The translations under genes and the position numbers were made by a program. Under the pieces are notes generated by a model. That model had not been told where the DNA came from. It saw only the letters and a list, made by a program, of their open reading frames with translations, and ran no database searches. From Thermodesulfobacteriota bacterium (GTDB taxonomy: Bacteria; Desulfobacterota; BSN033; UBA1163), in contig JBEKWN010000001.1 of NCBI GenBank assembly GCA_049513055.1, forward strand, positions 25,120-89,119: DNA of 64,000 nucleotides, in the 5' to 3' direction. Below, one piece after another: positions 60,585-62,006 of the stretch; position 1 is the first letter of the stretch; every line of letters starts with the position of its first letter.

Positions 60585-60935
60585 CTAACAACAGTCTGGA
60601 CGATTAGCACCTGGAGAGCTTTCGGAAAGATCGCCTGATTTTTCTTCCGAATCTACCACACAACAGCAGGAAGAGCTTTTTCGACCCAGCATGGCGTTGA
60701 TCACCGCAACTGCACAGCCTACCCCTGAGCGCACGTACAGGGCTTCGGCAGGACAATTTCGGGCACAGGCGCCACACTCCATACAAGCATCTTGATTAGC
60801 AATCTCAATTTTGCCATTTGTCAGGCCCAAGACAGCATGGGGACAGACCAAAAGACACATCCCACACCCCATACATTTTTTCTGATCAATCTTTAATGTG
60901 ACGACATCTCTAAGATAAATCAAATGGTTCATCAT
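60585..60935 (-). CDS. hgcB: HgcB-like 2[4Fe-4S] ferredoxin (mercury methylation partner of HgcA)
   Basis: Two CxxCxxCxxxCP motifs (CMGCGMCLLVCP, CMECGACARNCP), Cys-rich tail ending in vicinal CC; 10 bp downstream of hgcA. Confidence 0.7.
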   Translation of the reverse strand: MMNHLIYLRDVVTLKIDQKKCMGCGMCLLVCPHAVLGLTNGKIEIANQDACMECGACARNCPAEALYVRSGVGCAVAVINAMLGRKSSSCCCVVDSEEKSGDLSESSPGANRPDCC

Positions 60936-60944
60936 TTGAACTCC

Positions 60945-62006
60945 TTATGCGATGAAGTTTGATCCGAACCAAAGACCGAGTCCTACAATTCCAGCACCGA
61001 TCTCCAGTGGTAACGCCCAGCGCATTTCTTTCCTAACCCCGGATAGAGAAGTATAAGTCGAGGCTCCGGTGAAATTCATCGCGAGATAAGCCGAAGCAGC
61101 AGGTATGAGAAGGAGCCAGGCCATGATTTCGAAACGGCCTGCCCTGGTGATCCAATCACCCCAGTGAGAAGCCGATAGGATGACAGCGAAAAGAACCCCC
61201 AGACTGAGGCCTTTGACCGAAAAGGCCCGGCCTGGCAGCCAGGGTAGGAATAAGGGTGCTAAAACAGCACCGGCCAGAATGGCAATCAGGAGTGATAGAA
61301 CCGAGAAAAGACCATGACTCAAGGCATTTGTCCAAACCCCTCCTGAATTCCCAAAAAAAGTTAAGAGGAAAAAAATAGGGATCATGATAAGACCTGCTTT
61401 TAAAGCCCCGATAAGCTCCATCGGAATGAGTTCCACACGCTCCCATGTTGTAAAGGTTTTAAGCCTCATCTCTGGTGTCGCTTTAAGCCCGTCCTCCAAA
61501 AAAGTCGGTAGATCTGTCGCCCTGATGGGGCCGTAAATAACTTTAAAACCGGATAATTTTTTGACATGGTGAGCCGCAACTCCTGGACCAGACAATTGGG
61601 GCAAAATCAATTCACGATGCGTGACAATTTGGTTTAAACCGCTTGATTCGATTCGGCCAACGAGCTCCATCGTCCCAAAAGTTCCCTTACCCGAAGCACA
61701 CCAGACATTGATACCTTTAGTATCCAGAACCAGTATCCAGATGTCCTGGCCTGGCAATATCTCGCGCAACTTGTCAAAGCTCATCTTGTAATTGGCTGTG
61801 ACTAAGACCGGGGACTGTTCATCGGGTTTTCCCAAGGCATAAAGACCGGGTTCGATGGTGTAATACATGCGGCCTATCCCCCAACGAGCTTTATAAGTTC
61901 CTAAACGGTCTGCCCAAACAAGAGAGGACGAAACCTGAGGCACAGGGCCAACCGAGGTTTGGATTGAGCCAATGACAAAGGGTTGTTTCAAACTGGGAAG
62001 GCTCAA
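60945..62006 (-). CDS. hgcA: HgcA-like corrinoid protein (mercury methyltransferase): corrinoid-binding domain plus C-terminal multi-TM domain
   Basis: Cap-helix motif GINVWCASGKG matching N(V/I)WCA(A/G/S)GK; C-terminal ~150 aa with 4-5 TM helices; followed by hgcB. Confidence 0.75.
   Translation of the reverse strand: MSLPSLKQPFVIGSIQTSVGPVPQVSSSLVWADRLGTYKARWGIGRMYYTIEPGLYALGKPDEQSPVLVTANYKMSFDKLREILPGQDIWILVLDTKGINVWCASGKGTFGTMELVGRIESSGLNQIVTHRELILPQLSGPGVAAHHVKKLSGFKVIYGPIRATDLPTFLEDGLKATPEMRLKTFTTWERVELIPMELIGALKAGLIMIPIFFLLTFFGNSGGVWTNALSHGLFSVLSLLIAILAGAVLAPLFLPWLPGRAFSVKGLSLGVLFAVILSASHWGDWITRAGRFEIMAWLLLIPAASAYLAMNFTGASTYTSLSGVRKEMRWALPLEIGAGIVGLGLWFGSNFIA

Follow-up and report, generated by a model that had tools for sequence, protein, structure and literature searches.

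Does the 64,000-nucleotide stretch of contig JBEKWN010000001.1 from a Thermodesulfobacteriota bacterium (assembly GCA_049513055.1, positions 25,120 to 89,119 of the forward strand; hereafter the window, numbered from its first nucleotide) carry a genuine mercury methylation gene pair, hgcA-hgcB, and if so, where does the HgcA protein begin? An earlier note on this DNA had read such a pair in the open reading frames (ORFs) at 60945-62006 and 60585-60935. Both ORFs were found there, on the minus strand, and we have hardly any doubt that they form a genuine hgcAB pair. In this study, sequence features, family membership, conservation and RNA structure were analysed. It is very probable that the pair belongs to an hgcC-hgcA-hgcB operon (minus strand, approximately 62531 to 60585), which codes for a selenocysteine (Sec, U)-containing HgcA in an uncultured Syntrophales-like member of Thermodesulfobacteriota. 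Thus, the pair in the previous gene model stood, while its hgcA start at TTG 62006 gave way to a more probable one at 62093, 87 bases further upstream, and both an in-frame UGA extension and an upstream hgcC had been missed.

The hgcA-hgcB gene pair

The two genes contain the following features:

60945..62006, minus strand: hgcA, reading frame from TTG, 353 aa
60945..62093, minus strand: hgcA, full reading frame from the ATG at 62093, 382 codons, with predicted Sec (U) at codon 22
61683..61709, minus strand: cap-helix motif NVWCASGKG, residues 100-108 (353-aa numbering)
61700..61698, minus strand: codon of the cap-helix Cys, the predicted cobalt ligand (Cys132 in full-length numbering)
61491..61859, minus strand: corrinoid-binding domain (Pfam PF03599 CdhD, E=1.8e-10; PDB 2h9a_A and 4c1n_A)
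60951..61436, minus strand: transmembrane (TM) domain with five helices, residues about 191-352 (353-aa numbering)
60585..60935, minus strand: hgcB, 2x[4Fe-4S] ferredoxin, 116 aa
60875..60840, minus strand: first CxxCxxCxxxCP motif of hgcB, CMGCGMCLLVCP, residues 21-32
60785..60750, minus strand: second CxxCxxCxxxCP motif of hgcB, CMECGACARNCP, residues 51-62
60716..60714, minus strand: Cys74 of hgcB, 12 residues past Pro62
60668..60660, minus strand: CCC of hgcB, residues 90-92
60593..60588, minus strand: terminal CC of hgcB, residues 115-116

The identity of both genes held in a profile check against NCBIfam, in which both scores exceeded the curated cut-offs. HgcA matched the HgcA_corrinoid equivalog NF040863 with 454.6 bits (cutoff 275, E=1.8e-136), the 353-aa form spanning the profile from end to end (positions 1-324 of 325), and HgcB matched HgcB_ferredoxin NF040864 with 122.4 bits (cutoff 99, E=5.1e-36). 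Pfam detected the generic CdhD domain alone in HgcA. The only solved-structure relatives were the large subunits of CFeSP (corrinoid iron-sulfur protein), 2h9a and 4c1n (E=4e-10, residues 50-171), and the PDB search found no solved structure of HgcA itself. In the structure alignment, the cap-helix Cys of HgcA lies opposite the cap-helix Thr of CFeSP.

The cap-helix signature proposed previously is present at residues 100-108, and what had been described as a membrane domain of four to five helices was resolved to five. Kyte-Doolittle hydropathy revealed five hydrophobic segments (approximately 193-220, 226-259, 261-280, 292-312 and 330-352), and a low-confidence AlphaFold2 model (pLDDT, the predicted local distance difference test score, of 59), for which the input was 56 close homologues that were all at least 74% identical, contained five long helices (194-219, 225-252, 262-279, 288-313 and 322-352). 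Because of this pLDDT value, only the secondary structure of the model was used and no fold search was carried out on it.

HgcB also agrees with its previous description as a 2x[4Fe-4S] ferredoxin whose Cys-rich tail ends in CC: it contains two CxxCxxCxxxCP motifs, CCC at 90-92 and CC at 115-116, and the tail pattern GVGC…SCCC…CC is common to the whole clade. The gap between the hgcA stop and the hgcB start is 9 nt (GGAGTTCAA, with GGAG inside) and not the 10 bp given before. Among related genome loci, hgcB was located downstream of hgcA in 43 of 44; the exception is a contig end, so that the arrangement holds for all 43 loci with downstream DNA. In one related locus (L026, CAWHBU010000004.1, 6001..7958), the hgcA match ends at residue 217 and hgcB lies approximately 960 nt further on, compared with approximately 420 nt expected; this hgcA may be interrupted or rearranged.

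Cooper et al. (PMC7305189) described as hallmarks of HgcA a CFeSP-like corrinoid domain, a strictly conserved cap-helix Cys and five TM helices, and as hallmarks of HgcB two cluster motifs, a Cys approximately 12 residues past the second motif and C-terminal cysteines. All of these were found in the window pair. The HgcB motifs, Cys74 and tail cysteines agree with the functional residues reported for Pseudodesulfovibrio mercurii ND132, in which the equivalent of Cys74 (Cys73) and the C-terminal Cys residues carry functional weight (PMC7305189).

The Ser in the cap-helix motif, which had been pointed out as a variant, is indeed present, and NVWCASGK is one of six cap-helix motifs taken as "high stringency" in the consensus hgc protocol (PMC10087281); it is also on record from Baltic Sea hgcA genes. 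It fits the general cap-helix pattern N(V/I)WC(A/S)(A/G/S)GK, in which the Cys is strictly conserved. Among the matches listed, the 120 closest protein clusters carried NVWCASGK in 74 cases, NVWCAAGK in 38 and NVWCSAGK in seven. The Ser variant is a trait of the clade rather than an oddity.

P. mercurii ND132 (DND132_1056/1057) and Geobacter sulfurreducens PCA (GSU1440/1441) likewise have hgcA and hgcB as two separate genes, arranged in this order. Their HgcA shares the CFeSP-like corrinoid domain, the cap-helix Cys and five TM helices with the window protein, and their HgcB shares two CxxCxxCxxxCP motifs, the Cys 12 residues past the second motif and the C-terminal CC. On the other hand, they have Ala where the window has Ser in the cap helix, and the HgcB tail of the window is approximately 20 residues longer, with two Cys clusters. 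Sequence identity to a Desulfovibrionales-like relative (L044) is just approximately 51%.

Start of hgcA and the in-frame UGA codon

Upstream of the TTG at 62006, an ATG at 62093 is preceded by a GGAGA ribosome-binding site with a 6-nt gap and opens a 21-codon ORF, which is in frame with hgcA and is kept in related loci. This ORF and the 353-aa frame are parted solely by a TGA and seven sense codons (MDEAKEYLLEQLEDLSKPTSC-TGA-PQSGAAQ-L(TTG)SLPS…), and the predicted junction peptide across the Sec codon is …SKPTSC-U-PQSGAAQLSLPSLK. The N-terminal extension is short, with 21 residues before U and seven after it. The relevant elements are:

62028..62030, minus strand: in-frame TGA, predicted to be read as Sec, context TSC-U-PQS
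61989..62024, minus strand: SECIS (Sec insertion sequence)-like stem-loop, based on folding and conservation
62013..62000, minus strand: SECIS core stem-loop GGCUC-AGUU-GAGCC (GGCUC 62013..62009, AGUU loop 62008..62005, GAGCC 62004..62000)

Judging from comparison of related sequences, hgcA most probably encodes a 382-residue selenoprotein that starts at ATG 62093 and has U at position 22. It is likely that the UGA at 62030..62028 is decoded as Sec, and the TTG at 62006..62004 is almost certainly an internal Leu codon and not a start.

In this comparison, 99 loci were used, comprising the window itself, genome loci and metagenome loci, all with HgcA at least 62% identical and with upstream DNA. 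An in-frame TGA was present at the homologous site in 86 of them, and TAA or TAG never. The distance from this TGA to the called start was seven codons in 81 of the 86 TGA loci and six or eight in the remainder, and all length changes were multiples of 3. The residue before the TGA was Cys in 73 loci and the residue after it was Pro in 55 (both of 86). The remaining 13 loci, which lack the TGA, read straight through, most of them with Cys-Cys at the aligned site (e.g. SCCPKSGEAQ), and one protein cluster (P0108) is a single unbroken ORF of 382 aa that carries Ser at the Sec position. Upstream of the TGA, the hgcA frame was open for 20 codons in all 79 distinct loci, compared with 44 and 13 in the two alternative frames; all 79 contain an in-frame ATG, and 67/79 a Shine-Dalgarno-like motif. 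At the position of the window TTG, ten TGA loci have TCG, GCG or GAG, none of which can serve as a start. As TGA is an ordinary stop in 11 of the 47 window ORFs, the genetic code is not reassigned.

The Cys-U dipeptide is common but not universal across the related TGA loci. T, S, A, G, Q or L precedes the TGA instead of Cys in L068, L076, L077, L079, L081, L101, L103, L115, L098, L119 and L016, and the context is C-G-U in L011 and L017.

The SECIS core stem begins 14 nt past the TGA, and an outer stem is also present. Bacterial SECIS elements have been defined by a loop of 3-9 nt with a G in the first two loop positions, a stem of 4-16 bp, a distance of 16-37 nt from the UGA and a minimum free energy of -7.5 kcal/mol or lower (PMC13188914). 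The element found here agrees with all of these constraints, with a loop of 4 nt that has G at position 2 and then U or G, a spacing of 19 nt and a folding energy of -16.2 kcal/mol (z = -2.5). All five core pairs are formed in 80 of the 86 TGA loci, compared with two of the 13 non-TGA loci. When 71 distinct sequences were aligned without gaps, 91% of the core-stem cells were paired, versus 28-60% when the partners were slid. Compensatory changes were observed from UA to CG in five sequences at one pair and from CG to UA once at another. Of these observations, the contrast with the non-TGA loci is a stronger argument for a SECIS element than covariation. The annotated TTG start (62006..62004) sits in the loop and stem of this hairpin: the called start, [U/G]UG, corresponds to loop positions 3-4 plus the invariant closing G, and the loop is GGUC in the TCG variants.

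The Sec form of HgcA is known in principle. Haft & Gwadz reported selenoprotein forms of HgcA whose CU motif precedes the annotated start, PCUGP being invariant in 20 genomes, and HgcA (NF040863) appears as a CU selenoprotein in a 2026 review list. ND132 and PCA likewise have an in-frame UGA beside a Cys, upstream of the originally annotated start; they differ in context (PCUGP versus TSC-U-PQ in the window), and the extension of the window protein is short. What differs here is the (T/K/N)SC-U-P local motif, together with the fact that public entries for this clade continue to use the TTG, or a later codon, as the start. Public contigs identical to the window (the L125-L129 set) call hgcA as 353 aa from the internal TTG or as 307 aa from a later start. 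One protein named HgcA by NCBI (P0049) begins with MSLPRLK, and its locus (L019, JBFMAE010000292.1) has the ATG…SC-TGA extension.

Several observations weigh against a Sec-containing HgcA within an hgcCAB operon. Neither the 64-kb window nor the 10 kb past its right end yielded selA, selB, selC, selD, tRNA-Sec or further selenoprotein genes; in the window, sel genes were sought by Pfam and NCBIfam annotation of the 47 ORFs and selenoproteins by TGA-split ORFs and Cys/U contexts. ARAGORN detected no tRNA and no tRNA-Sec in the window, and the 10 kb beyond it (L129, 1..10000) contained 2-oxoacid dehydrogenase and fatty-acid genes and no selenium-utilization genes. The Sec context is SCUP (TSCUP in the window) instead of the PCUGP that is invariant in the 20 reference genomes, and Gly directly follows U in just eight of the 86 TGA loci. 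Covariation in the hairpin is modest, since conservation of the stem is high and it also encodes conserved residues (AQ-L/V-S). The low confidence of the HgcA structure model belongs here as well. Finally, a truncated ND132 HgcA that starts from the old start and lacks the extension was active when expressed in E. coli (PMC11588087); by analogy, the N-terminal extension would not be essential for the chemistry.

The last point and the absence of Sec machinery from the window would also fit a different reading of a genuine hgcAB pair, in which HgcA starts at TTG 62006 and no Sec is involved: a 21-codon leader ORF ending at the UGA 21 nt upstream would open the hairpin, which sequesters the TTG, and couple translation to this weak start. 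We regard this as unlikely. A TTG, GTG or ATG does occupy the position in 76 of the 86 UGA loci, and gene callers as well as the NCBI-named relative P0049 use it, but a [U/G]UG is expected there anyway from the SECIS loop consensus (G then G or U) and the invariant closing pair, and the other ten loci have no start codon at all. Moreover, the stop is TGA in 86/86, the two ORFs always share one frame with intervening indels in multiples of 3, and homologues without the TGA read through with Cys at the aligned site, or Ser in P0108. The 21-codon ORF was also considered as a leader peptide or a small Cys-peptide gene, and this candidate was dropped in view of its frame, shared with hgcA across an always-TGA codon, and the Cys read-through homologues.

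Two further explanations concern the pair itself. It is very unlikely that HgcA is a non-methylating paralogue, whether of the fused HgcAB-like kind, of the CFeSP/AcsC type of the Wood-Ljungdahl pathway, or disabled by its Ser. The fused HgcAB_like model (NF043039) gave 198.5 bits, under its cutoff of 285, and the CFeSP gamma subunit model 67.8 bits, under its cutoff of 306, whereas the HgcA equivalog was far over its own; neither the assignment to a paralogue nor the missing membrane domain that could have overturned the earlier note was thus found. Fused HgcAB-like proteins (e.g. in Pyrococcus furiosus) share a cap-helix corrinoid domain and ferredoxin motifs with the window, and isolates that carry this paralogue showed no methylation (PMC10087281); the window has two separate genes, parted by a stop codon and 9 nt, with a full set of functional cysteines in hgcB. 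CFeSP has a homologous corrinoid-binding Rossmann-like domain with a cap helix, but Thr replaces the Co-ligating Cys, the TM domain is absent, and it has its own [4Fe-4S] and TIM-barrel domains. Although Pfam reports the generic CdhD domain alone and public metagenome annotation names relatives "acetyl-CoA decarbonylase/synthase complex subunit gamma", no acs/cdh genes adjoin hgcAB, and the Ser-containing motif is among those accepted from confirmed methylators (PMC10087281). That the TGA is a true nonsense mutation or an assembly error in a decaying locus has a negligible probability. A frameshifting 64-nt deletion in a nearby gene of the window, relative to otherwise identical contigs, could be taken to point that way; hgcCAB, on the other hand, is 100% identical to several independent public contigs, and the TGA is kept across 86 diverged loci with the frame intact on both sides, and it is this conservation across diverged lineages that refutes decay or assembly error.

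hgcC, relatives and genomic neighbourhood

Upstream of the predicted selenoprotein gene, the following features were identified:

62159..62437, minus strand: hgcC, AbrB/MazE(SpoVT)-type HgcAB-associated protein, 92 aa from ATG 62437
62503..62531, minus strand: sigma-70-like promoter match TTGACA-17-TAATAT upstream of hgcC, 10/12 consensus matches
62114..62145, minus strand: perfect hairpin (14-bp stem, 4-nt loop) in the interval from hgcC to the hgcA ribosome-binding site

HgcC matched the NCBIfam model NF040962 ("HgcAB-associated protein HgcC") with 124.6 bits (cutoff 70) and the Pfam family MazE_antitoxin. The mechanical ORF (62159..62524, 121 aa) is probably over-long at its 5' end by 29 codons, and the start is probably Met30 (ATG 62437), which is preceded by AGGAGG; 92 aa are also called in identical public contigs. 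The promoter match lies inside the over-long ORF and thereby supports Met30 as the start, and it is a match to consensus only, with four such sites versus 2.9 expected in shuffles.

An hgcC gene was directly upstream of hgcA on the same strand in the window. The same position was seen in 41 of the 96 related loci whose upstream DNA was long enough. The conserved Cys motifs of HgcC in the clade are CCSP-like, (C)CKVES and CC(I/L)Y, represented in the window by CCSP, YCKVES and CCIY. Our literature search returned nothing relevant under the name "hgcC"; the gene has been described as prlF/mazE/abrB-like. Zhang et al. 2023 (PMC10349881) reported a putative regulator gene of AbrB/PrlF/MazE-like type that precedes hgcA, chiefly in archaeal methylators. 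Like the window gene, it encodes a small SpoVT/AbrB-domain protein directly upstream on the same strand; the hgcC described here differs in belonging to a bacterial Syntrophales-like clade and in having three Cys motifs. HgcC is a small Cys-rich AbrB-type protein and, by analogy, a probable regulator. In ND132, an ArsR-like regulator is found in place of the AbrB-type gene.

The 14-bp hairpin is very stable (-27.2 kcal/mol, z = -6.4; 0/200 shuffles as stable). It is not followed by a T-run on the coding strand and is shared with L001 only, a locus without hgcC. It may be a terminator, an attenuator or a 5' stabiliser. An Rfam scan of 60400..62700 at E<=1 gave no match and thus no cobalamin riboswitch or other described RNA in this interval.

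A protein database search with HgcA at E<=1e-10 returned at least 8000 matches, with a best identity of 97% among the matches listed. The closest species-representative genomes (73-87% identity) are metagenome-assembled genomes (MAGs) labelled Thermodesulfobacteriota, "delta proteobacterium" or Syntrophaceae. HgcA of Syntrophales/Syntrophaceae-like Thermodesulfobacteriota MAGs such as UBA2188, CG03_land_8_20_14_0_80_45_14 and MFD04408.bin.3.102 is 80-87% identical to that of the window, and they share the hgcC-hgcA-hgcB order, the SC-U-P extension, the hairpin and the HgcB tail. There is no substantial difference from these MAGs; the window has in addition the 14-bp intergenic hairpin and the 64-nt deletion. 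Several public metagenome contigs match the hgcCAB region and its flanks with 100% identity, and an identical HgcB is indexed in 27 data blocks of public metagenomes.

On one side, the operon is flanked by a 2-oxoacid dehydrogenase E1alpha/E1beta/E2 cluster, and on the other by a convergent gene encoding a RodZ-like helix-turn-helix/DUF2914 protein, beyond which lies an HlyD/major facilitator superfamily (MFS) efflux pair. No mer or ars genes adjoin hgcCAB. In L129, E1alpha, E1beta and E2 are directly upstream of hgcC, preceded by genes for a UbiA prenyltransferase, a DoxX protein and aconitase-like large and small subunits. The 64-nt deletion mentioned above is at window position 59203/59204 (ORF 57762..59417, plus strand), compared with the otherwise 100% identical contigs L125-L128. 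It puts the 3' end of the MFS efflux gene out of frame, so that the window has an ORF of 551 aa with an odd tail, compared with 510 aa called in the contigs, and may reflect either strain variation or an assembly artefact.

Genes elsewhere in the window code for resistance-nodulation-division (RND) efflux proteins, a LysR regulator, a molybdenum hydroxylase, a branched-chain amino-acid ATP-binding cassette (ABC) transporter, multihaem cytochromes, a sigma-54 two-component system, TldD/PmbA, NifU, a flavodiiron-like protein and a nitroreductase. A cluster of large multihaem c-type cytochromes lies at 29437..33799 and 39681..43806 (minus strand), with proteins of 446 and 663 aa that have eight and 11 paired-CXXCH stretches according to Pfam. 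They are DmsE/GSU2203-like, one of them reaching the DmsE-family cut-off and the GSU2203 matches staying under theirs. Flanked by NHL/beta-propeller proteins and unannotated large ORFs, this cluster looks like an extracellular electron-transfer module. At 16047..18789 (plus strand), adjacent genes encode a phosphoenolpyruvate (PEP)-utilising mobile domain (561 aa) and a pyruvate phosphate dikinase (PPDK) N-terminal ATP-binding domain (351 aa), which look like a split PEP-synthase/PPDK-like enzyme with reversed domain order.

Proposed mechanism and significance

For the chemistry, as for actual Sec insertion, the role of HgcC and methylation itself, our proposal draws on what has been described in other organisms. 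Translation of hgcA would begin at ATG 62093 and pass the UGA at 62030..62028 by reading it as Sec, directed by the downstream hairpin. The product would be a membrane-anchored corrinoid protein held by its five C-terminal helices, in which the cap-helix Cys of NVWCASGK (Cys132) would serve as the lower axial ligand of cobalt in a "Cys-on" arrangement. The two-cluster ferredoxin HgcB would reduce the HgcA cobalamin to Co(I), and the Co(I) corrinoid would then be methylated by S-adenosylmethionine, the methyl donor of the ND132 enzyme (PMC11588087). Transfer of this methyl group to thiolate-bound Hg(II) would give methylmercury, and the thiolates of HgcB Cys74 and the Cys-rich tail may hold the metal (PMC7305189). 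The N-terminal Cys-Sec pair (TSC-U-P) would presumably be an extra site for Hg(II) binding or hand-over.

A more far-reaching proposal is that HgcA of this clade is a systematically mis-annotated selenoprotein with an SC-U-P site, whose SECIS loop mimics a TTG/GTG start. Selenium supply could then set the amount of full-length HgcA, and UGA termination followed by re-initiation in the loop might give an active truncated enzyme. We consider this combination unlikely; if it were true, selenium status would be tied to methylmercury production in wetlands and sediments.

In this lineage hgcAB is common, the sequence of the window was already in public metagenomes, and the presence of the pair here is unsurprising. 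The added value lies in hgcC and in the corrected hgcA model, with its predicted Sec N-terminus, a start-mimicking SECIS element and a motif other than the published one. Since this population is found in many public metagenomes, the locus bears on environmental surveys of hgcA. Annotation from the internal start hides the conserved Cys-Sec N-terminus of HgcA in this clade, which matters for the design of primers and hidden Markov models, for heterologous expression constructs and for studies of selenium-mercury interplay in methylation. As to the organism, carriage of the gene pair makes it a probable methylmercury producer, a fair prediction from sequence.

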